IMG/VR virus record: IMGVR_UViG_3300021420_000014
Length of the DNA stretch: 64,000 nucleotides
Strand: one strand, 5' to 3'
Source of the DNA: a virus
In this document: one piece after another, positions 4,778 through 56,672 of the stretch
How the letters are laid out: every line of letters starts with the position of its first letter
How positions within the stretch are numbered: position 1 is the first letter of the stretch
Notes under the pieces: model-generated
Databases searched by the model: none
What the model was told of the DNA's origin: nothing
Seen by the model: the letters and a program-made list of their open reading frames with translations, nothing else
Made by a program: the position numbers and the translations under genes

Positions 4778-4840
4778 TTCTTTCCTTGTTGCTGTTGCTT
4801 TTTTGGTCTAGGCTCTCTCCGTAGCGAAGAGGGTAACCAT

Positions 4841-5611
4841 ACGAGATTAGCCTTCGGCTCGGGGCAATTGTTCGCATTGCCAGGACCATTTTTTGGTGGC
4901 GTCTTCAACGCCTCTCCTGTTTGGTTTGCCACACTGCAAGATGTCGATATCACCATCGACGCCACGATCAAAGAACTCCGCGGCCAGCTTCAATTTCCAG
5001 ATGATACGGCAATCTCGGACAAGAAAATAACCTGGAAAGCCGGCTACGGTCGCTTCTCGATCGATACCTGGAACAACATTTATTTCGGCGATACGATTAG
5101 TGCTGGATCCAACTCCGGTGGCATAGGAGCAGGCGGCGGCGTTCCGCAAGTTCAGGAATCGACCACGCTCGTTTCGACTACTTATACAGTTACCCACTCG
5201 GCCACATTCACACAAGACATGGGCGTCATTTACGGTTCGAACCTTCAACTCTTCCAGAAAGTTACCGGAGCTCCTGCACTGGGCCAATACAACGTTAGCG
5301 CGGGCTTATATACATTCAATGCTTCCGACAACAATAAAGCGATCCTGGTCAGCTATCGCTATCAGATCACCACTGGCCGCGTGCTCGTCGTTCAGAATCA
5401 CGTCCAAGGCTGGGGCCCGCAGTTCGAAATGCTTTTGTCGCAACCTTATCAGGAATTGACGACCGGCATTCCCAATTATCTCGACCTCTACGCTTGCAAG
5501 GCCGGCAAGCTCACCGCTCCGCTCAAGCGCGCCGATTACTTGATCTCCGACATCGAGGGACAAGCGTTCGCAAATTCGGCTGGTTTCCTCGGCGAATTTT
5601 ACGAAGATTGA
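4841..5611 (+). CDS. major tail tube protein (proposed ACG start at 4841; first canonical start is TTG 4868)
   Basis: AFGSGQLF...LQDVDITIDATIKELRGQLQFP tail-tube-type N-terminus; GAGGG SD upstream of ACG; in-frame stop at 4775 with no ATG/GTG/TTG before 4868. Confidence 0.75.
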   Translation, partial: TRLAFGSGQLFALPGPFFGGVFNASPVWFATLQDVDITIDATIKELRGQLQFPDDTAISDKKITWKAGYGRFSIDTWNNIYFGDTISAGSNSGGIGAGGGVPQVQESTTLVSTTYTVTHSATFTQDMGVIYGSNLQLFQKVTGAPALGQYNVSAGLYTFNASDNNKAILVSYRYQITTGRVLVVQNHVQGWGPQFEMLLSQPYQELTTGIPNYLDLYACKAGKLTAPLKRADYLISDIEGQAFANSAGFLGEFYED

Positions 5612-5625
5612 ACGTTATCAACAAG

Positions 5626-6120
5626 TTACGTGCGCCATCGTTTCCGATTCACGATCTTGGATATCGTATTAGGTTTCCTATTGAATCGCTTGGCTAGTTC
5701 AGTTTGCGGAACTCCGGATTCCCACAGCTTTCTAATTTCGCACACTTGCTCGAATTTTAAGCGCGTAGGATAGTGTTCGTCGCCTGCTGGAAAATGCTGC
5801 CTTCCCTTTTTAAGCATATCTTGCATGTTGTCCTGGCGCGTTCCAGTGAATAGGTGAGTAGGTCGAATACAATTAGGTTGGTCGCAATGATGAAACAGCT
5901 CATGGCCCTCTGGTATTGTATTGCCGTGCAGTTCCCATGATACGCGATGGACTACGCGTAATCCTTTGCTCGTTCCAATTTGTCCATAACCATCCTGATT
6001 TTTAGATCCGGTCCAAATCCAGCACGGCCCTAACTCCGGGCACGACGCAGGGATAGGCCCATTCTTGTCGACATGCTTCCAGAATCGTTCTTTGAGAGTA
6101 TTATCTGTAGGACAGGGCAT
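5626..6120 (-). CDS. HNH homing endonuclease with C-terminal HTH
   Basis: RFW..V.K, CWIWTG, HRVSWEL, HHCDQPNCIRPTHLFTGTRQDN; AGGAGG SD. Confidence 0.9.
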   Translation of the reverse strand: MPCPTDNTLKERFWKHVDKNGPIPASCPELGPCWIWTGSKNQDGYGQIGTSKGLRVVHRVSWELHGNTIPEGHELFHHCDQPNCIRPTHLFTGTRQDNMQDMLKKGRQHFPAGDEHYPTRLKFEQVCEIRKLWESGVPQTELAKRFNRKPNTISKIVNRKRWRT

Positions 6121-6188
6121 CGCGCCTCCTGTCAGGTGCGGTGTTCTTCGGGGTCTGCGTGTCCAGCGCAGGCCCTTTTATTTTATCA
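6118..6188. promoter_or_regulatory. extended -10 promoter (TGATAAAAT, - strand) plus two-hairpin element of HNH gene 1
   Basis: Same architecture at 10981-11054 and 18488-18563. Confidence 0.7.
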
Positions 6189-6247
6189 TTTGACAGTGTT
6201 GCTTTTCACGCATATGAAGGGACAGGATGTAGCTCTTCAGAGGGTAT

Positions 6248-6460
6248 CTGCCAGACATAACCTACGAATGCCTCGAATGCGGACATCAGATCACTGAATT
6301 TATTGCTTGTCAATCTTCCATGAAGAAGGGCATCTGCGGTCCTTGCGCAGTTAAGCTGATTCGGATTGCCTTTCCTCCGCGGTTTTCCAAAATTGAATGG
6401 TTCTTTGTTCGGATCAAGCGGCGTCTACTAAAAGAGAAACCAGTTGCAATCGCTGCTTGA
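6248..6460 (+). CDS. FmdB-like zinc-ribbon protein, CTG start (absent from ORF track)
   Basis: (M)PDITYECLECGH...ICGPC, 70 aa; in-frame TAG at 6230; AGAGGG just upstream. Confidence 0.6.
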   Translation: MPDITYECLECGHQITEFIACQSSMKKGICGPCAVKLIRIAFPPRFSKIEWFFVRIKRRLLKEKPVAIAA

Positions 6461-6541
6461 CGGATTGCCTTGACGGTTTTATCATCTGGTCCAGAATCAG
6501 ACTGCCTCGCAATCCTGCCGAGACTATTTGATTCTCCCTTG

Positions 6542-7401: not shown

Positions 7402-7734
7402 ATGGTTCGTGTAGTTGATTTCAAGATCGATGAATTCGTTAGTGTAAGGCTTGCGGCAATGAGTTGGGCCGAGGCTGAGAAGTTTCAGGAAGAGACAGCG
7501 CAACTGCTCGCTAACAAAGAAGCAACAAAATCGGAAGATTGGATGGGTCTTACGCAACGCACCGTCATTGAATCGATCAAAAAGGCAACAACGATTAGGC
7601 CCATAGATGGTCAGCCAACAAATGGAGATTTCACCTTAGAGGTTTTGAAGAGGGATTTTGATTTGCCAGCCATCAATGCGATGTACTTTAAGGTGCTCGA
7701 AATCTCCGGTCTCAAGACAGAGGTTAAATCTTAA
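7402..7734 (+). CDS. tail assembly chaperone, short (G-like) paralog
   Basis: GAGGTG SD; aligns with N-half of 6711-7388. Confidence 0.6.
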   Translation: MVRVVDFKIDEFVSVRLAAMSWAEAEKFQEETAQLLANKEATKSEDWMGLTQRTVIESIKKATTIRPIDGQPTNGDFTLEVLKRDFDLPAINAMYFKVLEISGLKTEVKS

Positions 7735-10088
7735 TGGCAGACGATAACCTTCGAATTTCTGCATCTATGGATGTGGGCCCGATCGTCAGCGGTACCAATG
7801 CTGCTGGCGCGGCCGTACAAAGTCTGGCTGACAAGTTCAAACAAGTTGCTGCCGATGCCCAAAGGGCCGGAGATGCTGTCTTAGCTCAAGCGGCTCGCTT
7901 TCAAGCTCAAGGATTGACGGCAGAACAAGCTGCTCAAGCCCTAATGCATTTTGGCAGCAGCGCAACGGAAGCAGCTACAGCAGCAGCGGCGGCAGCAAGT
8001 GCCGCAGGCGTGGAAGCCGCAGCTCTCACAACGGTCGCCGAGGCCGCAACCGGGGCTGGCGTGAGCATGCAAGCGAGTGCCATGGCCGGTGCTAAGGTTA
8101 GAGAAGAATTAGGCGCACTCACCGGAAGCATCGGTGGCATTGAATACGGCTTGGCGCGCGTCGCTTCCCGCATACCAAGTTTGATTCCGATCATCAGCGA
8201 TGTTTTCCCTCTCTTCCTAGCTATCGGTTTCGTGGAAATGCTCGGCGCGATGATTAGCAAGATAGGCGAAGTTGTGTCTGCGTATGAAGGGTGGGACGCG
8301 GTAACTCAAAGACTTTATGCCGATGCCCTCAAGGCAAACGCAGAGGAGATGAAGTACACCACCGATCTAAAGATCCAGCAGATGGAATTGAACGAGATTG
8401 GCCTCAAAGGATCCGAGCTCGAAGCAGTATCGGCAAAAGATGCTCACGCTGCAGCACTATTGAAGACCGCAGATGCCGCGGCAGAACTTGCCGTACAACG
8501 AGATCTTTTGGCCCAGCGTGACAAGACCGCAGCGCAATCCATGCGGGAACAAGGAGTACCAGAAACTGCGATTCGCCCATGGATGGAACAGCAAGCTCTC
8601 GTCAGAGAAGGCAGCAAAGAATGGGACGATCTTACCAAGCGTGCGGCTGAAGCCGGAGAAAAAGCAAGAGACTATGCAAAGGAAGGACAGAACCTAGAGC
8701 TCGTCAAGCTTCCAACCGACAAGCTAAAGGAAACGGCGGATCTAGCCAAAGAGGTGGCAGAGCAAGAGAAAAAATTGCGAGAGATCTGGGATCAGACGGG
8801 CAAGGACGCTGTGAAGGCCTACGATTTGCAGATCGCCGCCACCAAAAATAGGACTAAGGCGGAAGAAGAGATGGGCTTGGCTGTTTCCTCATCAAGCGAT
8901 AGAGAGGTGCGAGCTGCATCAGAAGCCGCAGTAGAAAAAGTCAAGTTTGAAAACGATTATCTGGCCGCTCTTCGGAGCGGTGAAGAACAAGCCGCACTGA
9001 TATCGATAGGAGCTCAGGAGATTGCCGCAAAGCAGCATGCTGAGATGCAGAAGGAAAAGCTTCGCGTATCTCTAGAATCGGCTCCTCACAAATCTAAAGA
9101 CCTAGGAAAGCTACAAACCGATGAGCTAGAAACGCAGAAGCGGCTAGAACAGGAAAAGGCCGACGCTGTTGTCAAAAGCCTAGAGGCACAGCGCGACGCC
9201 ATGGGTTCGCATGCTGCGGAGCTGGGGTCTATTAGCGGTATAGGCGTGGGGACAGCACCGCGGGCAGTGCCGGAAAATGCCGCCGACGCAGCACTGCTAG
9301 CGAAATGGCAAGAGTTACAAAACAAAATCGTCGATGCCAAGAAACAAGCTGCTGCAAAGATGCAAGAGATCGACGGCCAGATCAAGCTCTCCAATCAGCA
9401 AACGGCTAATCAGATCCAGCAATACTGGGCGTCCACCATGATGCGGTTCATGCAGCCGTTCGAGACTGCCTTCGACGGTGTGATCAAAGGAACTGAGTCC
9501 GTAAAGTTCGCCTTCATTAAGTTGGGCGGCGAACTAGTCATGAACATGGTTCATTCCCTAGAACAAATGCTTATGAAATGGATTACCACGCATGTTGCCA
9601 TGACGATTGTGCATGCTCTGATGGGCCAGCAGCAGGTGATTCAGGATACTACTACAGCTGCGGAAAAGCAGGCAATTCAGGCGGCATCGGCCACTGCGAC
9701 CATTACGCAATATGCTGGCGTGGCTGCCGCCGAAGCTTATGCCGCCGAAGCTGCGGTTCCTGTAGTGGGTCCGGGCTTGGCGGCAGGCGCGGCGGCCACA
9801 GCCTTCTCTGAAGTTATGGCCTTCAACGCATTCGCTGCCGCGCAGAAAGGCGCGATCGTGCCACGGAACATGCCCCTCAATGTGCACGAAGGGGAAATGG
9901 TGCTCCCTGCTGGGATTTCTAGACCATTACAGCAAGCGTTAAGTCCTGGCGGCGGTGGGATAGGCGCTAATCCGACGAATGTTCATATCCACGCAATGGA
10001 CAGTGAAAGTATGCGTAGTTTTCTATATCGCAACCAACGCACTTTTGTCTCTTTAGCGCGCGGAGCCATCCGAAACGGGAGATTCTAG
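7734..10088 (+). CDS. tape measure protein
   Basis: 784 aa, Ala-rich helical; C-terminal GAIVP..VHEGEMVLP motif; position after chaperones. Confidence 0.85.
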   Translation: MADDNLRISASMDVGPIVSGTNAAGAAVQSLADKFKQVAADAQRAGDAVLAQAARFQAQGLTAEQAAQALMHFGSSATEAATAAAAAASAAGVEAAALTTVAEAATGAGVSMQASAMAGAKVREELGALTGSIGGIEYGLARVASRIPSLIPIISDVFPLFLAIGFVEMLGAMISKIGEVVSAYEGWDAVTQRLYADALKANAEEMKYTTDLKIQQMELNEIGLKGSELEAVSAKDAHAAALLKTADAAAELAVQRDLLAQRDKTAAQSMREQGVPETAIRPWMEQQALVREGSKEWDDLTKRAAEAGEKARDYAKEGQNLELVKLPTDKLKETADLAKEVAEQEKKLREIWDQTGKDAVKAYDLQIAATKNRTKAEEEMGLAVSSSSDREVRAASEAAVEKVKFENDYLAALRSGEEQAALISIGAQEIAAKQHAEMQKEKLRVSLESAPHKSKDLGKLQTDELETQKRLEQEKADAVVKSLEAQRDAMGSHAAELGSISGIGVGTAPRAVPENAADAALLAKWQELQNKIVDAKKQAAAKMQEIDGQIKLSNQQTANQIQQYWASTMMRFMQPFETAFDGVIKGTESVKFAFIKLGGELVMNMVHSLEQMLMKWITTHVAMTIVHALMGQQQVIQDTTTAAEKQAIQAASATATITQYAGVAAAEAYAAEAAVPVVGPGLAAGAAATAFSEVMAFNAFAAAQKGAIVPRNMPLNVHEGEMVLPAGISRPLQQALSPGGGGIGANPTNVHIHAMDSESMRSFLYRNQRTFVSLARGAIRNGRF

Positions 10089-14906: not shown

Positions 14907-14975
14907 AATATGTTTCCACGTCTTCGGGGTGTTCACGCGTTCTGGCCGCTTCCAATTTTACGTCGGGGGTGGCCA

Positions 14976-43755: not shown

Positions 43756-43761
43756 CCAAAA

Positions 43762-44965: not shown

Positions 44966-44974
44966 GGAGATCAC

Positions 44975-45169: not shown

Positions 45170-45174
45170 CGCGG

Positions 45175-45777: not shown

Positions 45778-45874
45778 TTTCGCGTGAGCGAAACGGCGGA
45801 CACAACCAAATCCGATCTGAAGCCCAGGCCCCAAGGTAGTGTCCGCCGATTTGAAGCAAAAGGGAGAATCAAAA

Positions 45875-46957
45875 ATGAGATCAGCACAACGTAGTGCAAT
45901 CCAGAAGTCAGCAGCACAGAAGGCTTGGGAGACTCGCAAGAGGAACCGCAGCAATCCGCCACTGCCGCCAAAAAAGACAATTAAACTGCAACCATTGCCG
46001 GCGATCAAATTGCCGACGAATCCGGAACTTGTTTCGCCCGATCAGATCATGGCGCGCACCTGCGTTATGGTCCTCACTTTCCATGGCATCGGCAATCGCC
46101 GCAAGGTGGACACTGACAACATAGAAGTCAAGTCAAGTGACAAGCGCGCCGCAGCCAAAGAAAGCGAAGTGGACAAGGCGTGGTTACACCTGACGAAGCG
46201 GCTGATCGAAGCGGAAGAACTAGACAAGATCACGTCCAGCTACGGTGAGATGCGCCGGTACGTTGAGAACTTGGCTTTGCCGTCGTACATTAAGCGCGGC
46301 GTATACATCATGCCGACCGCATTCGTGATGCAAGTGGACGCCAAACTCAAGGAAGGCACTGCGACCGTTCAACCATTCATCAAATCGCTCGGCAAACGCT
46401 ACGAAGCCATCAAAGCAGAATCTCAAAAGAGGCTCGGTCCCCAATATAACGAGGCCGACTACATGACCAGAGAACAACTGATGGCTGCCTTTCAAGTGTC
46501 GTGGCGGTTCCTTTACGTGGATAGCGCACCGAACTTGGCCGGTGTATCAAAGGAAATCTACGAAGAGGAACGCCGAAAAGCGCAGCAAGATTGGGCAGAT
46601 CTCGCCCAAGTTCACAGACAGATGCTTCGCAGCCACATGTCGGAGTTCGTCAATCACTTGGCAGATAGGCTTGCGCCCAACGAAGAAGGCCGGCTCAAAA
46701 TGTTCAAAGAAGGCTCTGTCACGAAGTTCCAGCAGTTTTTGGAAAACTTCGAGCCACGCAATATCGGCAACGATCTTCAAATGAAGGTTCTTGTCGATCG
46801 GGCAAAACAGTTGCTCACCGGCAACGACGCCGAGTCTTTGCGAACCAACGACGAACTGCGGGCACATGTAAGGCAAGGTTTTGAAAACATCAAAGCCGCC
46901 CTAGACACGATGGTTGTTTTGAAACCGCGACGGATCATTACATTTGACAGATCGTAG
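45875..46957 (+). CDS. DUF3150-like helical protein with C-terminal KPRRIITF tag
   Basis: CAAAAGGGAGAATCAAAAATG start context; ALP..GVYIMP, YNEADY; cluster context. Confidence 0.65.
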   Translation: MRSAQRSAIQKSAAQKAWETRKRNRSNPPLPPKKTIKLQPLPAIKLPTNPELVSPDQIMARTCVMVLTFHGIGNRRKVDTDNIEVKSSDKRAAAKESEVDKAWLHLTKRLIEAEELDKITSSYGEMRRYVENLALPSYIKRGVYIMPTAFVMQVDAKLKEGTATVQPFIKSLGKRYEAIKAESQKRLGPQYNEADYMTREQLMAAFQVSWRFLYVDSAPNLAGVSKEIYEEERRKAQQDWADLAQVHRQMLRSHMSEFVNHLADRLAPNEEGRLKMFKEGSVTKFQQFLENFEPRNIGNDLQMKVLVDRAKQLLTGNDAESLRTNDELRAHVRQGFENIKAALDTMVVLKPRRIITFDRS

Positions 46958-46972
46958 CAAGTAACATACAAT
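46944..46972 (+). promoter_or_regulatory. sigma70 promoter TTGACA-N17-TACAAT overlapping end of upstream gene
   Basis: TTGACAGATCGTAGC identical to 63000. Confidence 0.75.
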
Positions 46973-46988
46973 AAGAGAGTGTAGAGCC

Positions 46989-47369
46989 ATGAGAAAGCCG
47001 GAGCCATTTGCCAAAGTAAAAGTGGGGCCGGGCCAACCGGCCCCGCGGCGTTTTAAGACACTGGTGGATGGCAGTGAATTGGTTGCTTTGTACAACGAGT
47101 CGAATACGATGTGGGACATTTATCTGGATGGCTATCGAATCGGATATGTCAAACACAGAATGGAGTGGCTGGCACTCCTTCAGTTGGGGGCACGATTTAA
47201 TCATCGCGTGATTGGCAAATTTGTGCGATGGCAGGATGCGGTCAATCACGTAATCACCACATTTCTGGCTCATCGGGCAAATTGGTCGGCCAGTAAGGCT
47301 CACCTATTTTTTAGCAAGGCTGTGAAGTTAGAAGATGTCGAGCAGGAACAGGTACCGCGACGCCGCTAA
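46989..47369 (+). CDS. hypothetical protein
   Basis: First ORF after promoter. Confidence 0.5.
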   Translation: MRKPEPFAKVKVGPGQPAPRRFKTLVDGSELVALYNESNTMWDIYLDGYRIGYVKHRMEWLALLQLGARFNHRVIGKFVRWQDAVNHVITTFLAHRANWSASKAHLFFSKAVKLEDVEQEQVPRRR

Positions 47370-47391
47370 GTTCGCAAAAGGGAGAATCGAA

Positions 47392-48249
47392 ATGGGAGCG
47401 CATACCGTTTGGAAGGGACATTTGTCTTTCGGCTTGTTGAATATCCCGGTACGGTTGTACGTAGGAGCCCGGGACAAACGCGTTGAACTGCATACCTATC
47501 ACACCAAATGCAATGGTCCGGTCAAAGAACCGAAGTATTGCAACGCCTGCCAAGAGATGCTGGCTCCGGAACAAATCTACAAGGGCTATGCAATCGACGG
47601 GAAGATCGTTCAGATTACCAAAGAAGAGATCGAACAGCTTACGCCAAGCAGCGGAAAAGTGTTGGAGATTACAGAATGCGTCAAGTGGGCCGACGTCGAC
47701 CCACTCTATCTGGCCGAATCCTTTTATTTACTGCCAGAAGATGTCGGCCGCAAAGCCTACGGTCTCCTCGTCAAGACGCTCACCGATACTGGCCGTGTCG
47801 CCATTGCTCAACTAGCCAAGTCAGGCAGGGAGAACGTAATTCTCTTGCGGCCCAAAGGCAATGGGCTGATCGTTCATTACATTTGGTATCCGACAGAGAT
47901 TGCAAGACTCGCTGAATTCGAAGATCTGGAAGCGGTCGCGTTCACAGCGTCCGAACTGAAATTGGCACGACAACTGGCCGAAAGTTTCGATTCCGAATTC
48001 AATCCCGAGATATTCGAAGATGGCTACTACATGCGCTTAACTCAATTGATCGAATCCAAGCTGGACAAGTCGGTCCAGGCACCGCAAGCGGTCAATGTTG
48101 CAGTCGCTCCTCCGGCCCAAGATCTCATGGCCGCGCTGTCTGCTTCACTCGCTACTCCCAAGCCGCGTCGGTCGATCAAGTTGAATGCTGAGCCAGAGCC
48201 GGCGAAAGTTGCTGAAAAAACCAAGGGCAAGAAAGGCAAGGCGGCCTAA
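47392..48249 (+). CDS. ku: Ku DNA end-binding protein
   Basis: WKGHLSFGLLNIPVRLY..KGY..YLLP..DLMAALSASL. Confidence 0.92.
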   Translation: MGAHTVWKGHLSFGLLNIPVRLYVGARDKRVELHTYHTKCNGPVKEPKYCNACQEMLAPEQIYKGYAIDGKIVQITKEEIEQLTPSSGKVLEITECVKWADVDPLYLAESFYLLPEDVGRKAYGLLVKTLTDTGRVAIAQLAKSGRENVILLRPKGNGLIVHYIWYPTEIARLAEFEDLEAVAFTASELKLARQLAESFDSEFNPEIFEDGYYMRLTQLIESKLDKSVQAPQAVNVAVAPPAQDLMAALSASLATPKPRRSIKLNAEPEPAKVAEKTKGKKGKAA

Positions 48250-49433
48250 TGAGTCATTATGCGGTCCTAGTTATAGGTGACGATCCTGAAGGGCAGTTGG
48301 CTCCATTCCATAAGTTTGAGAGTACTGGCGACGATAACCAGTACGTTCAAAACATAGATCAAACCGAAGAGGCTCGCGCTCAATACACTGAGCACACCAC
48401 CACGCGATACCGTGATCCAGAGGGAATACTTCACAATCCTTATACAGAAGAAGGTAATGCCAAGCCACAGTTTTGGCGCGATCCAACGCCAGAAGAGATA
48501 GCGGAGCACGGCAAAATGTTTGGCTCTGGCTTTGGCGGTGGTATCCGCTGGCTTTCAACAGATTGGAACGACGGCCTGGGCTACCGTGCCAAAGTTTTCC
48601 AATTGCCGGAGGGCTGGAATGAAGTTGAGGTTCCGACTCCCGAAGCAGAGACACTCGCCAAGTTTGTTGAAGGCTGGTATGGCCATAAAGTTGTTCCCTT
48701 TGGCGAACAGCCTGACCTGGTTGGCAAACACAAATACGGCTACACGCTGGTAGATTCGGGCGGCACAGTCGTGAAAGTTGTTGATCGCACAAACCCAAAC
48801 AAAAAATGGGATTGGTATTCGGTAGGTGGCCGCTGGACCGGCTATTTCAAATTGAAAGCGGTTGGCGTTGGCGTCCTGGGCAAACCAGGAATCCAAGCAA
48901 TAGCTTCAGATTACAAAGCACCTGAGAGAGACCGCGCCGATCTGTGCCGGAAATGCGACATAGACATCGAGGGAATGCGCAATGAAGCAGAAGAAAAGGC
49001 AGCAAGAAAATACGATCTAGTGTGGTCGATCATAGGAGCACACCAGCGTCCTCTAACCTGGGAGGAAGTAAAAAAACTTCATCAAAACGGTGTCGATGGG
49101 AAAGGTAGACCTAACGTCGATTTTGACGCCGCTAGAAAATACTACAATCAGCAACCTGCGGTAGTCGCGCTTCGTGAAAACGAAACGGCAACATGGTATG
49201 AGGTGGACGACTTTCTGGTAGCGCGTGAAGAGTATTTGCGCCGAGCACGCGCCGGGGCTCTGACGACGTTTGCAGTCATCAAAGATGGCCAGTGGTACGA
49301 GCGAGGCAGCATGGGCTGGTGGGGAGTCGTCTCGAACGAGGAAGACCACGACGAATGGAATATCAAGTTCGCGTCTCTGATCGATGGACTGCCAGACGAT
49401 ACGATTCTAACGATTATTGATTGCCATATCTAA
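48249..49433 (+). CDS. conserved phage hypothetical protein
   Basis: MSHYAVLVI..NPNKKWDWYSVGGRW..IDCHI. Confidence 0.7.
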   Translation: MSHYAVLVIGDDPEGQLAPFHKFESTGDDNQYVQNIDQTEEARAQYTEHTTTRYRDPEGILHNPYTEEGNAKPQFWRDPTPEEIAEHGKMFGSGFGGGIRWLSTDWNDGLGYRAKVFQLPEGWNEVEVPTPEAETLAKFVEGWYGHKVVPFGEQPDLVGKHKYGYTLVDSGGTVVKVVDRTNPNKKWDWYSVGGRWTGYFKLKAVGVGVLGKPGIQAIASDYKAPERDRADLCRKCDIDIEGMRNEAEEKAARKYDLVWSIIGAHQRPLTWEEVKKLHQNGVDGKGRPNVDFDAARKYYNQQPAVVALRENETATWYEVDDFLVAREEYLRRARAGALTTFAVIKDGQWYERGSMGWWGVVSNEEDHDEWNIKFASLIDGLPDDTILTIIDCHI

Positions 49434-49457
49434 ACGTCTGAAGGAGCCGTCGTTTTT

Positions 49458-49820
49458 ATGAGCCGTGAGCTAATGATTAGGTTGGCTGACGTCTGGGCCA
49501 GCCTTGCCACAAGACCATTCATATGCACACAGGCCGCTGACGAATCTCGCGCAATTGTTGGCGGCATCATTTATGGCTATTACGCCGAAGATAATCCTAC
49601 TGCTTTCCTTGGGCATGACGAAGGCGGACACGATTTCTTAGTCGTCGACGACCGTTGGATTCTTGATTTTTGGGCCGCAGCCTACTATGGGGAAATGCCC
49701 GTTTGGGATCTGCATGAGCCAAGTGATGCCGCGGATATCGCTAGGCTCTATGGCCCACGCGACAAGTGGACCAATATCGACACTCGGCCGAAGGAACCTA
49801 GATTCTTGGAGGATAACTAA
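49458..49820 (+). CDS. hypothetical protein
   Basis: AAGGAG SD. Confidence 0.5.
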   Translation: MSRELMIRLADVWASLATRPFICTQAADESRAIVGGIIYGYYAEDNPTAFLGHDEGGHDFLVVDDRWILDFWAAAYYGEMPVWDLHEPSDAADIARLYGPRDKWTNIDTRPKEPRFLEDN

Positions 49821-50188
49821 TGAATAACGAAGCAATAAGTAAAGCATTGGCGGATCTCAAGGCGATGTTGCCGGATCTGAAAGCTGCGCACATTATTATC
49901 GTTTCTATGGCGTACAGCGGCAGCGGCGACGAAGGTACTACGGAACCGGCTAAATTCTTTGCCAAGTTCTCTGATGAACCCGAAGTCGAAATAATCCCAT
50001 CCGGCGAACTCAGCAAAAAGATCAACAGTATTTTCGAGACCATCTTGTTGGAAGAATTGGGCGGTTGGGACCAAAACGAGGGCTCGACCGGGACGTTCCA
50101 GCTCCACGTTGAAGCTGGCGAGCTCGACATCAATCATAACTGGTACGTGCAATCAACCGAGGAAGATCCACGGAAGTTCACACTCTAA
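49820..50188 (+). CDS. DUF6878-like protein
   Basis: YSGSGDEG..GWDQNEGSTG. Confidence 0.6.
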   Translation: MNNEAISKALADLKAMLPDLKAAHIIIVSMAYSGSGDEGTTEPAKFFAKFSDEPEVEIIPSGELSKKINSIFETILLEELGGWDQNEGSTGTFQLHVEAGELDINHNWYVQSTEEDPRKFTL

Positions 50189-50535
50189 TGCACCCACTTC
50201 ATCATGCTCAGTCGTCTGTCAAAAAGTACGGTGGCCAGGTAGAGGATTATCTGCCTATTCACAATTGGTTCGACGAATCAAAAAGTTTTCACGCCACATT
50301 TCGCCATAGAGCACTGCGGCATCATTCCGAAGGCATCTTCATGGCCGAGCGCATCTTTGGCGTTTCGATTCGCAACTCAGACGGCAAAGAGATTCCCACC
50401 CGATTCATCGGGGAACAACACGTCCTCGAAGACTGCGGCTTTATCCCATCGGTCTCTGACTGGCTGAAGAATATCAAGCCAGAGTCCTGGATGTTGCGCG
50501 TAGGCAAGAAGTCATTGGAATTGGAGAAACTATGA
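50188..50535 (+). CDS. DUF6915-like protein
   Basis: HPLHHAQSS..YLPIHNWFDESK..HRALRHH..EQHVLED. Confidence 0.7.
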   Translation: MHPLHHAQSSVKKYGGQVEDYLPIHNWFDESKSFHATFRHRALRHHSEGIFMAERIFGVSIRNSDGKEIPTRFIGEQHVLEDCGFIPSVSDWLKNIKPESWMLRVGKKSLELEKL

Positions 50536-51268
50536 ACTGCTATGGATGTGGAGAACCGATTACAACCGTTCACTGCTTGGTATTTCAGGAAAGCCATGTT
50601 CCGCAAGGACAACGCGGCTGTGAAATCTCATTCAAATTCATGGCTACCGAAGAAGCCGAACAGCGTGGCCGAGCCGCCTTTGGCGGAATGGGCTGCGCGA
50701 CAAGCCACTTCAATATTTGGATGATAAAGCATACAACTCCGGAAGGGCAGGTGGCTCATTCATGAATCAAGACGCAATGGCAGCAGCGAAGCGTGCTACA
50801 GCACGCCGGCTCGTCTCAAAACATATCGCTTCGTTAAAAAGTTTATTGGCAGACGCCAAGCGAAAATCGGCCAACCAAACACCAGCCTGGAACGCCAGTC
50901 AGGAAATAGTTGACGCTCTCGAATTGGTCCTGAATCTGAGCCTTCCCACAGAGACTCCGAACGAGAAGCTTTTGTACGCAGCCAAAGCGGTCCGAGATGG
51001 ATGGGGCACAACCTGACCGAACCGATGGGTCGCTTAAACGAGGCTATCGATGAATGCGAGGCCAAATGAATCCAGATGAGCCAGTTGGATTTCCGCGAGA
51101 GCTCATGGTCAAGCAATTCGTTGGCAAGGTTCGCGGCAACTATTGCGATTTCCTTGTATTCACAACCGGTGATCCGAAGTATTTGCTGTTCTGTCCTTTG
51201 GATCGATATGGCTGCCAGGGAACATTGCAATTTCCAATCAAGAAAACCGATCTTTGCCGTGATTGGAA

Positions 51269-51637
51269 GAAAAGGATGATCGTGTGACTACGAAATGGAA
51301 AGTTCCATTGTGGATGAAGCCGTACCTAACCTTCGTCACCGTTCCTCATGGTCTTGAGGTTGAAGACGTGATGAACGGCAGTTCTTTGATGATTCCAACA
51401 CTCGTGGAAAATACCGTGAAAGGCCAAGTCGCGTTGCTTATGACAATGCACGAACACGGTTGCCTTCCAGAACAGCCTAATAAATATGCGCTAGGCACAA
51501 AGGTTATCGATATCAATGGGCGCACCGGCCAAGTCAGAGAAGTCTTATGGTCAGTTGGCTATCTCTTAGACGATCAGGATTGCACCGAATTGAACCAAGA
51601 GGACGAAATAAAACTAGGACTGGTGAAACAACATTGA
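51269..51637 (+). CDS. hypothetical protein (start uncertain)
   Basis: ORF in dense early operon. Confidence 0.35.
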   Translation, partial: EKDDRVTTKWKVPLWMKPYLTFVTVPHGLEVEDVMNGSSLMIPTLVENTVKGQVALLMTMHEHGCLPEQPNKYALGTKVIDINGRTGQVREVLWSVGYLLDDQDCTELNQEDEIKLGLVKQH

Positions 51638-51835
51638 ATCACTATCCTGTACTCAGCCAGCGGAACGCACTGAAAAGCCGCTGTCCTCGCGGTCACGTCT
51701 ACAACAAACGCAATACGCGCATCGATTCACGCGGCTGGCGGCGATGTAAACCATGCGAACGCATTCAAAACCGAGAAGCCAAACGCAGGCTGTATAAGTT
51801 TGGTTCCAGAAAAAGTGTGAGCCAACAGGAGCTAT

Positions 51836-52114
51836 ATGAGTTGGAGGGTTCCAAAAAAGTGTTCAAACTGCCCCTTCCGTACTAGTGGCATAGGCCTTCA
51901 TTTGCGCCGTTCGCTTCGCCCGGGCCGGTGGCGCGGGATCCTTGACGGACTTAGGCGCGGAGAAGCTTTTGAATGCCACAAGACCGTAGCGCACAACGAA
52001 GATGGCGATTCAGTTGCCGGCACAGGCTTGATGTGCGCTGGTGCGATCGAATGGCTCGACCGCCATAGCATATCGAATCAATTTGTGCGGATCATGGAGC
52101 GGATTCATGGATGA
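51836..52114 (+). CDS. DUF6283-like Cys/His protein
   Basis: CSNCPFR..FECHKT..MCAG. Confidence 0.6.
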   Translation: MSWRVPKKCSNCPFRTSGIGLHLRRSLRPGRWRGILDGLRRGEAFECHKTVAHNEDGDSVAGTGLMCAGAIEWLDRHSISNQFVRIMERIHG

Positions 52115-53795
52115 ACTAATCCTCAAGAAGATCCTGTCCGAGCATGAGTTCAAGCTGTATTTGGAAGCCGTAACTGGTCACACAACCGATGCCATTAAGG
52201 GCACGGCGGCCTACGACTACATTCACGAAAAAGCTGACCTTCATAAAGTGGAAGAGGACCCGCGCTATCTAGGTGCGCATCGAGAGCCTGACGGCGCGTT
52301 GCTGCTCTTCACCGATGGTTCTAGTTCGTTGATAAAAACGCATCATCACATTGAATTCAAGCCTTCCGGTCGTGGGAAAGCAAGGATTCCGCCGAATCCT
52401 GATTATCCAAACGGTCGAAGGCTAGATGTTACTGAAGGACAAGAAGCTAGTTGCTATGTGAATCTGCCTTATCCGGCTCCAGAGTGTGGCATATGGATAG
52501 TCGAATGCGGCAAATGCAGAACCAATGCTGCGGTCACTGCCGCAGGTCGGCCTGACGATCCGATCAGCATTAAGATTCCGTGTAAAAAAGATAGTCATAG
52601 TCAAGGTACGTATCGTAGAGCCGATGGTGTGTTGGGCGAACGATTGGTCTTCAAAGCAGGATTCGACGTGCCTGACGACGATCATGCTGCCTTGGTTCCG
52701 AAAGCAGTAGCATACGACAAAAAAGGAAAAGGAATGATTATCGACCGACTCATCTACGACTACCGATACGATGCCGTACTGACAATCAAGCTGATGCAGA
52801 CCATGGATGACAAGGCATCGCAACAGGAAGCAGCCGTTAAGGCGCACATGCAGCACAAATATGCGGATTCCTTGGAATCGTCGGTGCGATATTGGCTCGA
52901 CGTGCGTGAAATAGAAAAGTTCAGGACCGTGAAGATTCGGTGGAAACACTTTCCGCCTTGCATCCACGATCAAATGTTCATTGAATTCAACGGAGAGCTG
53001 AAGTTTGATTTTCGACCATGGAAACGCCCAGATATTTTTGTGTCGGAGACCGAACAAAATCTAAAGCCTGCACCGCTAGTATTGGCTCCCTATAGTCTGC
53101 CAGATACGACTTATCGTGCCGTGCATATCCAAAGGAACTTACCACCGCATAAATTTTTTGGATGGCCTGAAGACAAACCGGTAATTCGCGCCACATGGTA
53201 TGAAAAACCGATGTGGATTAAGCATCCTGAACTTGGCGATATACCCGCTATAGACAACTATGTCGTCACGCTTTGCGAGTCCGTCTGGCCTAAAAGGTTG
53301 GACGTTTTCAAAGTTGGCGATCCAGATGAGATTGCCCACCCAGGCGAAAGAGCACACGCGGATCGGCTGATGTTTATGACAGCCAATCTCATGTACTTCT
53401 TGGCCGCTGAGAATATCGTCAAGGTTCGGATTCGGCCAGAACATCACGAACGCTGCGGACGCGAGCTCTCCGGGCTTCCAAAATCCGACAAGCCATACTA
53501 TGTTCTGCCGTTTCAGTTGCCGCGCTATAGGTACCTACACCGTGACGATGAGAAGCCAAATGGAACCACCGGCCGGCATGTGAGCGTTTGCTTTGATGTC
53601 CGCGGCCACTTCCGACATTTAGATGCCCAACGATTCGAGCGTGACGCCAACGGCAATGTGCGCGTAATTTGGATCGGCGGTCACCAGCGCGGCTTAGGCC
53701 ACGTTTACCGGCCGACTGTCCGGCGAGGATTGATAAGCCATTTATTTCTAGATTATGACAAATTTATCGCTCAGGAGACAAAGCGTGCTAGGTAA
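52107..53795 (+). CDS. large multidomain hypothetical protein
   Basis: C-terminal VRGHFRHL..IWIGGHQRG motif. Confidence 0.6.
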   Translation: MDELILKKILSEHEFKLYLEAVTGHTTDAIKGTAAYDYIHEKADLHKVEEDPRYLGAHREPDGALLLFTDGSSSLIKTHHHIEFKPSGRGKARIPPNPDYPNGRRLDVTEGQEASCYVNLPYPAPECGIWIVECGKCRTNAAVTAAGRPDDPISIKIPCKKDSHSQGTYRRADGVLGERLVFKAGFDVPDDDHAALVPKAVAYDKKGKGMIIDRLIYDYRYDAVLTIKLMQTMDDKASQQEAAVKAHMQHKYADSLESSVRYWLDVREIEKFRTVKIRWKHFPPCIHDQMFIEFNGELKFDFRPWKRPDIFVSETEQNLKPAPLVLAPYSLPDTTYRAVHIQRNLPPHKFFGWPEDKPVIRATWYEKPMWIKHPELGDIPAIDNYVVTLCESVWPKRLDVFKVGDPDEIAHPGERAHADRLMFMTANLMYFLAAENIVKVRIRPEHHERCGRELSGLPKSDKPYYVLPFQLPRYRYLHRDDEKPNGTTGRHVSVCFDVRGHFRHLDAQRFERDANGNVRVIWIGGHQRGLGHVYRPTVRRGLISHLFLDYDKFIAQETKRAR

Positions 53796-54009
53796 GCACG
53801 AATATCTGAAACGGCGCAAAGAACTAAAGCGAGAATTGCGCGCGGCTAAAAAAGAACAGCGTCGTCTTAATAAAGAGCTCCAAAGGTTGGATGCTGAATT
53901 AGACGCAGCGGCAGCAAAATTGGGCGATGCCATTGTAGACGAAGGCAAAGTCGTACTGCTTGACGGTGGATCGTCGCTCGTTGCCAGACATAAACCTGTC
54001 AAACCGTAG

Positions 54010-54038
54010 TTGACATACCGTACCTACCACGATATAAT
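54010..54038 (+). promoter_or_regulatory. consensus sigma70 promoter TTGACA-N17-TATAAT
   Basis: Spacer TACCGTACCTACCACGA related to 40840. Confidence 0.9.
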
Positions 54039-54076
54039 AATAGAACTAGCAGTCAATTCTCAAAAGGGAGAATCTT

Positions 54077-54823
54077 ATGCTCAAAAAGTTTAAGCCGTTG
54101 GCGCATTCCGATGAATTTGGCTATGCCTACGATTCTCAGGCCATGGATTTCAATGCTCCGTTTTTAGATCACTTCCGTATCTACCACACCTACGGTCACG
54201 ATCTGGTTCAGCATTCACCGGACTGGTCTGTGACCGTCGATCAGGCAGCTGATTATCTCGCATCACTCGCCGAGGCCATGAAAGACGATCAGGAATTGCT
54301 TGAGGCCGTGCGGTTCCATATTTCGCGCCGGCCAAGCAGGAAAGAGATCGAATTCGCCGCATCGATCAAGTGGAAAGAGGATTCGAAGGTCCGCTATTTC
54401 TCGGTCGCCGAACAGAGAATCTCATCCTCTGACAGCAAACGCCACGACAAGCGGTATCAAGAAATCGGATCTCAGTGCGACGGCACTGCCCAATCGATCT
54501 TTCGCATTTTGGTCCGAGAATACGCCGCTGGCTTAGAGCGTTATTGTTATGCCCACGCCATACGTGAATGGTGCCTTGAAAACGGCAGCAATGATGATCG
54601 GCCATACATGCAGTTGCCTGGCCTATTCATGAATTGGTTCAAATCACCTGCCGGTCGTGACAAACGCGAGGAAGCGCAGCGGATTAATGATGGCTACGAA
54701 GCGTGCTGGTATTTAGTCCAGGCTTCCTACAATCGTGCGGCAGCGGAAGCTGCCATAAGAAACTACCAAAATAAACTGCACAAGACGGAACCTACACCGG
54801 AATCGTCATGCTCCGCAGAGTGA
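54077..54823 (+). CDS. hypothetical early protein
   Basis: CAAAAGGGAGAATC SD context after promoter. Confidence 0.65.
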   Translation: MLKKFKPLAHSDEFGYAYDSQAMDFNAPFLDHFRIYHTYGHDLVQHSPDWSVTVDQAADYLASLAEAMKDDQELLEAVRFHISRRPSRKEIEFAASIKWKEDSKVRYFSVAEQRISSSDSKRHDKRYQEIGSQCDGTAQSIFRILVREYAAGLERYCYAHAIREWCLENGSNDDRPYMQLPGLFMNWFKSPAGRDKREEAQRINDGYEACWYLVQASYNRAAAEAAIRNYQNKLHKTEPTPESSCSAE

Positions 54824-54990
54824 TCGGGCAGGTGATTTGGTACTTTGTGGCTGACCGCGTTGAACAATTGGCTTGCGCTTGCAATCGCGATCTAATTGAC
54901 GAGGATGACTTGCAAAGTGAGCTTCGGGATGTTCGGCACGATATACGGCTAGTTGATCGCCGCGTCGATGAACTTGAGGGCGAAGTATAG

Positions 54991-55530
54991 ATGGTCCAAA
55001 CGCTGTTCGGCACAATTGAGAACAAGGCCGAGGCCCGGGAGCGCGCCCAAAAGATGGCCGAGCTATATGACGCGCTGCGTGAGGCTCCGGAAGCACTCGA
55101 TTGCCGACGGGTACAGATTGGGGACCTGACTTACTTCATCGAACGCAGCAACGCTTGCAAGCTGGACTTAAACGACCATGATGGCCTGCATCGCCTGATT
55201 GGAGATCCAGAAGAATTAATAACGGCTCGCGACTGCGCCTTCATGCGCCGACACAAACGCTGGTGGCGTAAAACACCAAAAGGCTACCTGGGATATTCAG
55301 CTGCGATCTATTGCGCGACACTTCACCCAAAGGAAATCAAGTATCTCGAAGATCAACGGATATGGATTCAGGACGAGATTGACTCAATCGAAACAAATGT
55401 CCCGATCATTCGCGAACAGGTAAAAGCTTTGAAGGCTGTAGCACCACTGCCGGAAGATATTGCCAAACGGCACGGCCTGACTGTAGATGGCGATCCACTG
55501 AAACCAATCGAGGAGAAAGCAAAATGTTAA
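54991..55530 (+). CDS. hypothetical protein
   Basis: GAGGG SD; 179 aa. Confidence 0.5.
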   Translation: MVQTLFGTIENKAEARERAQKMAELYDALREAPEALDCRRVQIGDLTYFIERSNACKLDLNDHDGLHRLIGDPEELITARDCAFMRRHKRWWRKTPKGYLGYSAAIYCATLHPKEIKYLEDQRIWIQDEIDSIETNVPIIREQVKALKAVAPLPEDIAKRHGLTVDGDPLKPIEEKAKC

Positions 55531-55850
55531 GATTTGGGACCCAATCAATCGACATAGGAAAGCTGACCGAAGATGAAACCGCGGACCTGTTCATAGCTGC
55601 GGCTAAATCCCTTAGAGAAGAAAGGCTGTTGGAGTCGTTCGATCTGATTCTGACCACAAAGCAAAAAGAAGAGTTGGGCGAGACATGGTTCAACATCGAT
55701 TCTGGACCACGATGAAGCGCCAATGCCGATTCTGTAAAGAACGGACTGGCGCGATCACTTGTTTTCGTATTCCGACAAGAAATAGCAATCCTTTTATTTA
55801 TGCTCACGAAAAATGCTTCCGGCAATGGCTTGAGGCTTGCTTAGCCAAAC

Positions 55851-56672
55851 TTGAACAACGGTAGCCTGCCGAGAAAAGGCAAAGGGAGAATAAAAATACG
55901 CCGAATCATTAAAAATCGATGCCCACACTGCGGCCGTATTCGCGGCACTGGCCATACATGTCCCACATTCAACTGGCGATTCAAAGACCTAACAGGCAGG
56001 AGATTCTCTAGGCTTACCGTAATATCTTTAGCCAAAGAGAAAAGGCGCAATCAATTAACGTGGGTATGCGTGTGCACGTGCGGCAACAAGATCATCGTTA
56101 CCACTGGAGATCTAAAAACTGGCAACACTAGAAGCTGTGGATGCATAAGGCATAAAAACATAGCTGGCGAACGCTTCGGATTATTGATTGCGATAAAACG
56201 CGATGGTTACATCCGGAGGCACAAGGCTTGGTTGTGCAAATGCGACTGTGGCAACGAAACGCGTGTTCCATACGGCCGTCTTACTGCCAGAGCGGTAATT
56301 AGCTGTGGCTGTCAGAGAGGTGGCCACAATAGACTTCCTAATCATCTAGCACGCAGGCGAAGAATTTTTTACCACTATCATAGATGGAGTGCACGGCTAG
56401 GAAGGCCGTTCCGCCTTAGCTTTAGGCAAGTAGACCGCCTTATTAAAAAGTCTTGCTATTACTGCGGCCACAAAACCGATGTTTCATCCGGACACTTTAA
56501 TGGCATAGATCGAGTAGATAACACCATCGGATACGTTGCTGCAAATGTGGTGCCATGTTGTTGGCAATGCAATCGAATGAAAGGCAAGTTGTCACACGAC
56601 GACTTCATCGCGCGGTGTATTCAGATAAATAAATTACACAAGGGAGAATTAAATGAAATCAATAATACTTGA
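55851..56672 (+). CDS. HNH endonuclease with CxCxCG/SCGC repeats (start TTG 55851 or ATA 55896)
   Basis: DLTGRRFSRL..WVCVCTCG..SCGC twice; CYYCG..GIDRVDN..PCCWQCN. Confidence 0.75.
   Translation: MNNGSLPRKGKGRIKIRRIIKNRCPHCGRIRGTGHTCPTFNWRFKDLTGRRFSRLTVISLAKEKRRNQLTWVCVCTCGNKIIVTTGDLKTGNTRSCGCIRHKNIAGERFGLLIAIKRDGYIRRHKAWLCKCDCGNETRVPYGRLTARAVISCGCQRGGHNRLPNHLARRRRIFYHYHRWSARLGRPFRLSFRQVDRLIKKSCYYCGHKTDVSSGHFNGIDRVDNTIGYVAANVVPCCWQCNRMKGKLSHDDFIARCIQINKLHKGELNEINNT

Follow-up and report, generated by a model that had tools for sequence, protein, structure and literature searches.

Near-cognate codons at probable gene starts of a soil phage, and a 12-nucleotide leader tied to ACG in unrelated phages

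The window analysed here is a stretch of 64,000 nucleotides (IMG/VR record IMGVR_UViG_3300021420_000014) from a soil phage whose genome comprises 165 kb and about 195 genes. An earlier note on this DNA had proposed that five of its reading frames begin with near-cognate codons, namely ACG (twice), CTG, ATT and possibly ATA, and the sequences and coordinates it gave for the five sites all match. Since every single-base change in ATG gives a so-called near-cognate codon, codon identity by itself proves nothing. The features concerned are the following.

4829-4840, + strand: leader GAGGGTAACCAT, read from the sequence, with a GAGG Shine-Dalgarno (SD) core and an 8-nt spacer
4841-5611, + strand: tail tube (major tail) protein gene of 256 codons, start almost certainly ACG 4841
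4868-4879, + strand: in-frame canonical alternatives TTG 4868 and TTG 4877 (tail tube codons 10 and 13)
6233-6460, + strand: orphan open frame with a CxxC...CxxC pattern, proposed start CTG 6248, unsupported as a gene
14965-14975, + strand: G-rich, SD-like leader GGGGGTGGCCA, directly before ATT
14976-15869, + strand: baseplate hub protein gene (PF09931 and PF09356), with ATT 14976 at the family's start position
44147-44158, + strand: second leader copy GAGGGTAGCTAT, read from the sequence
44159-44563, + strand: gene of 134 codons, function unassigned, start almost certainly ACG 44159
55882-55895, + strand: recurrent phage leader AAGGGAGA plus 6 nt, upstream of ATA 55896
55896-56672, + strand: HNH endonuclease gene, possible start ATA 55896

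The tail tube gene lies upstream of an open reading frame of 784 aa (7734-10088) and of the baseplate hub gene. Its label is backed by fold, as the best Foldseek matches of the predicted model are tail tube proteins (8xkn_B, 9jgi, 9jgh and 6xgr, with E down to 9e-6 and TM of about 0.5). The leader and start codon, GAGGGTAACCAT-ACG, span 4829-4843; an in-frame TGA lies at 4775, and no canonical in-frame start is found between this stop and the ACG. Counted from 4841 the protein has 256 aa, a length shared by more than 100 homologs, and the alignment to PHROG 8234 begins at residue 2. The start codon of related loci is ATG, GTG or TTG, apart from the closest relative (G001), which keeps the ACG, and locus L025, which has ATC. 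Stop codons stand close upstream in both, a TAA four codons before the ACG in G001 and a TGA two codons before the ATC in L025. In the window and in G001 the tail tube gene is closely followed by an HNH gene, and L025 has a GIY-YIG gene that overlaps its ATC start.

Gene callers instead picked TTG 4868 as the start (P0003, 247 aa), and the near-cognate codons could be regarded as mutated former starts, with translation proceeding from TTG 4868 or 4877, GTG 44078, ATG 14910 and TTG 55851 to give shortened or extended proteins. In-frame canonical codons are indeed present at all four sites, many genes of the phage open without a good SD, and TTG 4877 is conserved at codon 13 in each of the three tail-tube lineages with a non-canonical start (the window, G001 and L025), where it could thus still serve as a back-up start. 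The codons that would be lost are nevertheless under selection at the protein level. The tail tube genes of G001 and the window share 79% nucleotide identity with 46% divergence at third positions, and differ over their whole length by 103 synonymous and 27 non-synonymous codons; codons 2-12 show three synonymous and two conservative changes, a small sample. TTG 4868 is not conserved, being replaced in G001 by CTT, a synonymous change that deletes this alternative start. In locus L025 many codons have changed synonymously, yet R2, F5, G6, G8, Q9, L10 and F11 are retained; R2 and G6 are invariant and F5 and G8 nearly invariant in the family, and residues 2-13 are predicted to make up the first beta strand of the tube (pLDDT 67, moderate confidence). 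Judged from these substitution patterns, codons 2-12 are evolving as protein in the ACG and ATC lineages, and former starts that have merely decayed are a rather unlikely explanation, on which other sites bear as well.

At the gene of 134 codons GAGGGTAGCTAT-ACG spans 44147-44161, and the 18-mers around the two ACG codons match at 16 of 18 positions, as had been noted; no further match with four or fewer mismatches occurs elsewhere in the 165-kb genome. Three relatives (G001, G002 and G003) carry ATG-AGY-CAC (Met-Ser-His) at the position of ACG 44159, with in-frame stops close upstream. The canonical alternative, GTG 44078, overlaps the upstream gene. The DUF1257 label previously attached to the 134-aa protein has to be withdrawn, as Pfam gives no DUF1257 match even at E=5; among the PHROGs there is one marginal match, to an unknown family. 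On the comparisons with relatives, it is near-certain that both ACG sites are genuine start codons.

The baseplate hub protein matches PF09931 (88.4 bits) and PF09356 (78.6 bits), both above the Pfam cut-off, in agreement with its earlier assignment to DUF2163 (DUF2163 / Phage_BR0599). Twelve homologs begin with MK[PSAQ]AS, aligned on I-K-P-A-S of the window. The leader GGGGGTGGCCA, which shares 9 of 11 positions with GAGGGTAGCCA, has a duplex energy of -11.9 kcal/mol with the anti-SD. In-frame ATG 14910, which would add 22 residues, follows the upstream stop by 4 nt, as is typical of coupled genes, and prediction places the SD of the ATT site within an 11-bp hairpin (14943-14975) that would sequester it; both points favour translation from the canonical codon. 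Homolog alignments extend over 93% of the long form. ATT 14976 probably serves as the start codon.

For the HNH gene, AAGGGAGAATAAAA-ATA 55896 is present as described, and the product of 55896-56672 matches PHROG 374 and other HNH families. Its leader had been called close to the phage's usual one, and this holds: 12 of the 15 genome copies of AAGGGAGA on this strand are followed at 4-8 nt by an ATG, GTG or TTG that opens a long reading frame, and the copy at 55882 has ATA in the ATG slot, 6 nt downstream. The N-termini of HNH homologs begin further downstream than ATA 55896 and so give no information on this site, and the canonical alternative, TTG 55851, overlaps the end of the upstream gene. 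ATA 55896 is thus a plausible, possible start.

TAG 6230 and CTG 6248 are likewise present as described; the zinc ribbon proposed to begin at CTG 6248 scores below the cut-off in Pfam zinc-ribbon families. A search of 1.84 billion representatives gave no real homolog of the frame at 6233-6460, the stretch is without counterpart in G001 and without match in five relatives, and its coding score is under the threshold used. CTG 6248 as a gene start is unsupported. Elsewhere in the same genome, outside the window, a further gene has an ATC that sits on the ATG of G001, with an in-frame stop eight codons upstream and an SD, GAGAGGAGA, 6 nt before it; that this gene truly starts at ATC appears near-certain.

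Alignment of homolog N-termini, which the earlier note had proposed as a check together with inspection of start codons in related phages, places the canonical family start exactly on ACG 4841, ACG 44159 and ATT 14976, and also on the ATC of the gene outside the window. Canonical in-frame alternatives are available at GTG 44078, ATG 14910 and TTG 55851; none occurs in the interval from the upstream stop to the codon at ACG 4841, at the ATC gene, or in G001, L025, L035, L036 and L289. An SD stands at working distance, with GAGG 8 nt before both ACG codons and GGGGG(T)G before ATT. Weak non-standard codons would therefore occupy the normal start position of relatives at the two ACG sites, and probably also at the ATT and ATA sites. 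Of the near-cognate starts originally proposed, both ACG codons are thus well supported, ATT is probable and ATA possible, and CTG is left unsupported. The accompanying remark that TTG and GTG starts are frequent amounts to ordinary usage, with 49 ATG, 11 GTG and 2 TTG among the 62 starts that are also conserved in the closest relative.

Since the record is a metagenome assembly, and a single run, probably its source, contains the phage, errors in sequencing or assembly at true ATG codons have to be considered. An independent assembler gave an identical sequence over 44000-56100 at about 73x depth, G001 comes from an independent metagenome and has the tail-tube ACG in a gene that is 21% diverged at the DNA level, and further independent contigs carry leader and ACG. 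By this agreement the near-cognate codons are not sequencing errors, and the chance that they are is negligible.

The leader and its ACG also occur in other phages. A 17-mer was searched that consists of the 12-nt leader, ACG and AG (GAGGGTA-R-C-Y-AT ACG AG); exact matches were found in five IMG/VR contigs, four of them at gene starts. These are the tail tube gene of G001, whose leader is that of the window with one transition, the major tail protein gene in L034 and L035 (two contigs of one phage), where the 17-mer is identical to GAGGGTAGCTAT-ACG-AG, and a tail-fibre-like gene. Among chance matches, by comparison, 3 of 119 were start-like. A one-base variant of the leader heads a head-tail adaptor gene, the ACG of which aligns on the GTG start of Pontimonas phage phiPsal1, a start that has GGAGG. 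Larger scans of metagenomes and genomes gave about 4 start-like matches per 100, which is near background, and few convincing additions. Three independent lineages only carry leader and ACG, with two copies in this phage, one in G001 and none in G002-G005. The same 12-mer nonetheless precedes five unrelated gene families, four of which are virion parts, in phages with a G+C content of 51-66%; conservation is limited to the 12 nt 5' of the ACG and has sharp edges with unrelated flanks. The ATG version of the leader, found in six contigs only, is no commoner than the ACG version.

An identical 12-nt leader before ACG in unrelated phages is left unexplained if these codons are former starts altered by mutation, and the canonical alternatives in L035 and L036 would drop 61 and 21 residues, respectively, that align to family profiles. 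The recurrence before virion genes of unrelated phages speaks for a dedicated ACG initiation region instead of a decayed ATG site, and suggests that leader and ACG together act as a dedicated start signal. The earlier note had left the choice between relaxed initiation fidelity and a dedicated control. The second is favoured by the leader tied to ACG in unrelated phages, and the first is disfavoured as only 4-5 of the about 195 genes are affected; a gene for IF3 was looked for in the phage genome and none was found.

The recurrence could also be historical, with leader and ACG forming a mobile cassette that spread by recombination at gene boundaries, possibly together with homing endonuclease genes, and with no functional link to ACG. 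Such genes adjoin several cases (HNH in L036, the window and G001, GIY-YIG in L025), and in L036 the leader follows the end of the HNH gene at a distance of 0 nt. A cassette is still highly unlikely, given that similarity ends exactly at the edges of the leader with unrelated flanks, that L035 has no protein in common with the phage of the window, and that no endonuclease gene adjoins the leader at site 44159 or in L035; if the ACG of essential virion genes were neutral and hitch-hiking, ATG would, moreover, be expected to replace it quickly.

As to mechanism, the account judged likely is that these are real genes translated from one-base variants of ATG by ordinary initiation, the ACG leader being a dedicated region. 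The ordinary initiator fMet-tRNA would start on the near-cognate codon, positioned by the SD core. The GAGG core of the ACG leader is a weaker SD than AGGAGG, which relatives with ATG carry, so a strong SD is not what compensates for ACG. Help may come from the context, that is GAGG, the 8-nt spacer GTA-R-C-Y-AT, U at -1 and AG at +4/+5, of which the U and the AG could extend pairing with A37, U33 and C32 of the anticodon loop. A special initiator tRNA might be invoked instead, as the phage has 37 tRNA genes including tRNA-Thr(CGU), which G001 also has, and UACGAG is fully complementary to anticodon loop positions 32-37 of this tRNA. That tRNA-Thr(CGU) acts as an initiator reading ACG is a very remote prospect: with a paired G1-C72 and without three G-C pairs at the base of the anticodon stem it lacks bacterial initiator features, no initiator-like tRNA occurs among the phage tRNAs (neither CAU tRNA resembles one), and small leader-bearing contigs, which are fragments, show no tRNA genes.

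In plant organelles, C-to-U RNA editing turns ACG into an AUG start codon, and there, too, a genomic ACG stands at the start position and a short conserved upstream element could specify the site. The 12-nt leader might similarly be the recognition element of a sequence-specific factor, either such editing or a licensing protein or RNA that switches on virion genes. The sharp-edged conservation across unrelated genes and phages of different G+C content, the similar frequency of ACG and ATG versions, the weak SD core and the predominance of virion parts would all fit. Neither editing machinery of the plant-organelle kind nor such a licensing factor is known to us from bacteria or phages, and phages of very different hosts would need a universal host component; a specific factor is quite unlikely. 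ACG also starts AAV VP2 and Sendai C', virion or accessory proteins of eukaryotic viruses. Those are minor products of scanning ribosomes in a Kozak context, whereas the phage case is bacterial, SD-dependent and concerns a major virion protein.

Among bacterial systems, the AUU starts of infC (IF3) and pcnB are cited as the only confirmed non-canonical starts of E. coli (bioRxiv 10.1101/063800). They resemble the phage sites as near-cognate true starts policed by IF3, where a weak start sets or regulates output. They differ from them in that the phage uses ACG, a weaker class in E. coli, on high-copy virion genes and on several genes per phage, with a specific conserved leader and no evident autoregulatory logic. 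Conserved AUU/AUA starts with an extended SD have been described for infC, cvfC1, ccpN and citZ of Staphylococcus aureus (PMC13009471). Like the phage starts these are conserved in relatives, missed by annotation and preceded by a characteristic leader, but the helper there is a long, strong SD-anti-SD duplex, while the phage has a core of only GAGG and a conserved 8-nt spacer without obvious pairing to the 16S 3' end. Another parallel is offered by the Start-Associated Sequences (SAS, GGGATAGGAGCCC) of Cluster K mycobacteriophages, which are numerous in each genome, precede starts at 93 sites in the tabulated genomes (80 of them before ATG), occur in a single phage cluster and only with non-structural genes, and have no known function (PMC3203893). 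Both are short, asymmetric, SD-containing motifs lying a few nucleotides upstream of start codons in unrelated genes, with conserved positions unable to pair with 16S rRNA; the phage leader differs in sequence, is rare (two copies here), recurs in phages that are unrelated, stands preferentially before virion genes and is linked to ACG.

An ACG-started GFP carried N-terminal Met in E. coli, where ACG belongs to a codon class that yields 0.1-1% of AUG (bioRxiv 10.1101/063800). Such a yield would be hard to reconcile with a protein required in hundreds of copies. What is new is a 12-nt leader tied to ACG at virion gene starts of unrelated phages; this leader may make ACG efficient, or it may let the translation of late genes depend on conditions such as the activity of IF3 late in infection.

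Five near-cognate start sites had been proposed in the earlier note, and re-reading of the sequence returned their bases and coordinates exactly as they had been reported:

4841, plus strand: ACG of the tail tube gene (canonical in-frame alternatives TTG 4868 and TTG 4877)
6248, plus strand: CTG of a 70-75-codon CxxC frame (zinc-ribbon ORF)
14976, plus strand: ATT of the baseplate hub gene (alternative ATG 14910)
44159, plus strand: ACG of the gene for a 134-aa protein (alternative GTG 44078)
55896, plus strand: ATA of an HNH gene (alternative TTG 55851)

The observation proved to be largely real: four of the five sites are credible, two to three of them strongly so, and CTG 6248 is unsupported. 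The interpretation offered with it, relaxed initiation fidelity or a dedicated control, was right in part.

The window corresponds to bases 32760-96759, read on the reverse strand, of an IMG/VR phage record that is 164,879 bp long and has direct terminal repeats; G+C content is 51.7%, and the plus strand of the window carries nearly all genes. A simple codon-usage gene finder recognizes about 195 genes in the genome, among which near-cognate starts number about 4-5 in total. The usage of ordinary starts is unremarkable; those conserved with the closest relative, G001 (IMGVR_UViG_3300021420_000018), comprise 49 ATG, 11 GTG and 2 TTG, and the SD-like pentamers GGGAG, GGAGG and AGGAG are enriched 11- to 14-fold before first ATGs. 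A good SD is missing from many structural-gene starts, which are often placed right behind the preceding stop. Outside the window, ARAGORN detects 37 tRNA genes and a tmRNA that form a single array. The other strand encodes a tRNA with a CUA anticodon (amber suppressor) and, next after it, one whose four-base anticodon loop reads (tcta). Together these features occupy positions 19650-19863 and 123136-131043 of the full record, G000:C1; TAG still terminates 17 of 88 long ORFs.

The sole plausible start of the tail tube gene is ACG 4841, and the N-terminal peptide that it opens is almost certainly translated. Positions 3-247 of the PHROG 8234 profile align with residues 2-249 of the protein, and most of 155 homologs are exactly 256 aa long, which is the length counted from this ACG. 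The database copy of the gene has 247 aa because the gene caller chose TTG 4868, a codon that is CTT in G001 by a synonymous change; a secondary start at the TTG of codon 13 is possible. Of 12 related viral loci, nine have ATG at the homologous codon and one each has TTG, GTG and ACG; the ACG locus is G001, where the leader is the same (AAGAGGGTAGCCAT-ACG-AGA) and an in-frame TAA is located four codons upstream of the ACG. The gene is 79% identical between the two phages at the DNA level, with 46% of third positions changed and codon differences that are synonymous in 103 cases and non-synonymous in 27; codons 2-12, with three synonymous and two conservative changes, resemble the remainder of the gene. 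In the predicted structure (pLDDT 67) residues 2-13 form the first beta strand, and the model matches the solved tail tube proteins 8xkn_B, 9jgi, 9jgh and 6xgr (E down to 9e-6). In L025, a third lineage with 84% identity, the codon at this place is ATC and lies two codons past an in-frame TGA. There a GIY-YIG endonuclease gene (L025 713-1474) is inserted directly 5′ of the tail tube gene and overlaps it by 10 nt at the ATC (1465); the SD serving the ATC sits within the endonuclease gene.

The upstream gene and the tail tube gene are separated by 63-65 nt in the ACG lineages, and an ATG lineage has 62 nt there; nothing has therefore been inserted before the gene. A group I intron or split gene before the ACG sites was rejected on this equality of gaps, and at ACG 44159 it was rejected on a gap of merely 16 nt. 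Read-through of the in-frame upstream stop was likewise rejected, as the frame relation is kept neither in G001 nor at ACG 44159. Within the gap, a 30-nt stretch at 4786-4815 (a T-run, then GG-CTAG) is partially conserved in G001 and recurs with 97% identity at G000:C1:123038-123067, immediately beyond the array's final tRNA gene. A role as terminator or promoter element is possible; simple scans recognized it as neither. The tail tube gene is followed directly by a 164-aa HNH endonuclease gene in opposite orientation (5626-6120, minus strand), which is conserved in G001.

The 134-aa protein started by ACG 44159 had been labelled DUF1257, which is not borne out by Pfam. Relatives are encoded by G001 and by the further relatives G002 and G003 (70-38% identity), and each of these genes opens with ATG-AGY-CAC, with stops just upstream, at the place where the window reads ACG-AGT-CAC. 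In Logan, the probable source run was assembled independently, and 44000-56100 is identical there at a depth of about 73; this DNA run is the only one listed for the phage, and no RNA run is listed. A search of IMG/VR gave no relative of this gene close enough for use. The in-frame alternative GTG 44078 is located within the upstream gene, which ends in ELRPRRKITFDK (window 44100-44142); the alternative frame overlaps this constrained stretch.

The contexts of the two ACG codons are indeed alike at 16 of 18 bases, as had been claimed, and the 18-mer has no other match at up to four mismatches on either strand of the whole genome. Only four coding-strand copies of GAGGGTA exist genome-wide, and the 13-mer AGAGGGTARCYAT precedes only the two ACG codons there and only the tail-tube ACG in G001. 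An exact IMG/VR scan for GAGGGTARCYATACGAG returned five contigs, including G001. In L034 and L035, two versions of one 66%-G+C phage, the ACG opens a frame of 132 codons, in which the alignment to PHROG 10528 (major tail protein) runs from residue 5, at profile position 6; the nine open codons upstream of the ACG include no canonical start. In L036 (58% G+C) an HNH gene is followed directly by leader and ACG, and the 92-codon frame that this ACG opens matches PHROG 12296 (tail fibre protein); the fifth contig is a chance match within a giant-virus ORF. Allowing any base at both degenerate positions adds L289 (60% G+C), in which a gp6-like head-tail adaptor gene begins at the ACG; in the alignment this codon coincides exactly with the GTG start, GGAGG present, of the homolog in Pontimonas phage phiPsal1. 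The neck protein of that phage (MG835450.1; locus L299, 298-334) is annotated from a GTG at record position 9409. Because of the homology with L289 and a GGAGG six bases upstream, the annotated start is probably 12 codons too far downstream, and the GTG at 9373 is indicated.

L035 shares zero proteins with this phage, L036 shares only HNH homologs, and the sequences flanking the leader are unrelated between phages; for the L035 protein no relative was found in cultured phages. Leader conservation across these contigs is imposed by the search pattern, and the independent lineages number three. In a background scan, in which the leader could be followed by any codon, 3 of 119 matches were scored as gene starts; scored in the same way and with G001 excluded, 5 of about 15 distinct ACG matches lie at gene starts (binomial p about 3e-5). 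Chance probably accounts for L280 and L281 among the five, which leaves three verified lineages. The leader with ATG occurs in six contigs only (five distinct), mostly at gene starts and never before a recognised virion gene. If a generic leader had come to stand before ACG by rare accident, one would expect the ATG form to be commoner by orders of magnitude, which it is not. When the 17-mer of leader, ACG and AG was searched for in far larger metagenome and genome collections, most matches were chance ones within genes and about 4% were start-like. Near-cognate starts, such as those of infC and pcnB, and start-associated leader motifs, such as the SAS of Cluster K mycobacteriophages (PMC3203893), are each already known. 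The new point is the ACG-linked leader; no description was found in the literature of an ACG-specific leader common to unrelated phages on high-copy virion genes.

Homologs of the baseplate hub protein (PF09931 and PF09356) extend over 93% of its long form; twelve start MK[PSAQ]AS, exactly at the I-K-P-A-S of the window. A search of IMG/VR gave no relative of the hub gene close enough for use. ATG 14910 sits 4 nt past the upstream stop, and a predicted 11-bp hairpin at 14943-14975 (GGCCGCTTCC ... GGGGGTGGCC; about -21 kcal/mol, z -1.6) contains the G-rich SD of ATT 14976, which it would mask unless opened by ribosomes coming from ATG 14910. The position behind the stop and the predicted hairpin favour ATG 14910. 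The leader of the ATT, GGGGGTGGCCA, agrees with that of the ACG codons at 9 of 11 positions, and partly because of this resemblance we give the ATT roughly even odds or slightly better as the start.

The recurrent leader of this phage is AAGGGAGA followed by AT(C)AAAA, and 12 of 15 same-strand copies have ATG, GTG or TTG 4-8 nt on as the first codon of a long frame. At 55882, just past the stop of the upstream gene, a copy is followed 6 nt on by ATA, in frame with the HNH gene. ATA 55896 is a plausible candidate start; HNH homologs begin further downstream, and their N-termini do not discriminate between ATA 55896 and TTG 55851. Another copy of the leader, AAGGGAGAATCAA, lies on the minus strand at about 6515-6540, with ATA 5 nt on (a 36-codon frame) and TAG where a paralogous leader has TTG; it may be decayed or a second ATA-type start. 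CTG 6248 and its zinc-ribbon ORF were rejected: a search of 1.84 billion representatives gave the frame no real homolog, relatives gave no counterpart, and its coding score is poor. It lies in a stretch of about 340 nt (6186-6526) that is absent from G001 and adjoins the 164-aa HNH gene. Starts were also compared with G001 gene by gene over 90 pairs of predicted genes, a comparison of stop-to-stop ORFs being too noisy, as DNA similarity continues through non-coding frames. One further gene was flagged, for a 316-aa PHROG 2971 protein outside the window (L033:504-1451, minus strand), which reads GAGAGGAGAACTACC-ATC in this phage versus ATG in G001. This ATC has a TAA 8 codons before it and its nearest downstream canonical codon 18 codons after it; the genome-wide screen gave no other strong candidates.

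The start positions, their persistence and the leader-codon link are established; initiation on the ACG by normal initiator tRNA is inferred. In E. coli, ACG-started GFP has an N-terminal Met, and ACG belongs to a codon class yielding 0.1-1% of AUG (bioRxiv 10.1101/063800). ATG-lineage relatives have AGGAGG, a stronger SD than the core in the leader (GAGG, 8-nt spacer), and therefore rescue by an extended SD, as for the AUU/AUA starts of S. aureus (PMC13009471), does not fit. Comparison by hand of the leader spacer with the 16S 3′ end gave no convincing duplex beyond GAGG. Local RNA folds at the starts are ordinary (z -1.6 to +1.5), with a notable hairpin at the ATT site only. Positions -1 and +4 have roles in extended codon-anticodon pairing, and here U at -1 and AG at +4/+5 would lengthen the pairing to the anticodon-loop bases A37, U33 and C32. 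At 4831-4843 the leader, GGGTAACCATACG, appears similar, when read in the same sense, to the 16S rRNA stretch GGUAACCGUAGG, which we take to be universally conserved and which is situated between helices 44 and 45, near the IF3 site. ACG use may reflect a shift in IF3 stringency late in infection; no phage-encoded IF3 was found with PF00707 or PF05198. The route may also depend on a factor, an editing or licensing protein. TadA-type A-to-I editing at UACGA was rejected, the flanks being without an anticodon-arm-like stem and ICG being no better start. An initiator-like phage tRNA was rejected on structure, and tRNA-Thr(CGU) is an ordinary elongator.

We put forward, as a tentative and rather doubtful possibility, that GAGGGTA-N-C-Y-AT with ACG-AG is an undescribed dedicated bacterial initiation element. 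It would make the ACG a working, perhaps conditionally efficient, start of virion genes across phages whose hosts differ greatly, and would act through a specific ribosome or initiator-tRNA contact or a factor such as an editing enzyme and not through strong SD pairing.

Gene callers take only ATG, GTG and TTG, and the tail tube gene is shortened by 9 codons here and by 12 in a relative; phage annotation misses near-cognate starts systematically. If the proposal is true, a context enabling ACG for abundant proteins would alter the supposed limits of bacterial start-codon choice, and the leader would provide a new handle on IF3-dependent fidelity and a compact non-AUG initiation part for synthetic biology. 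For the phages themselves, a translational switch for late genes would be possible.
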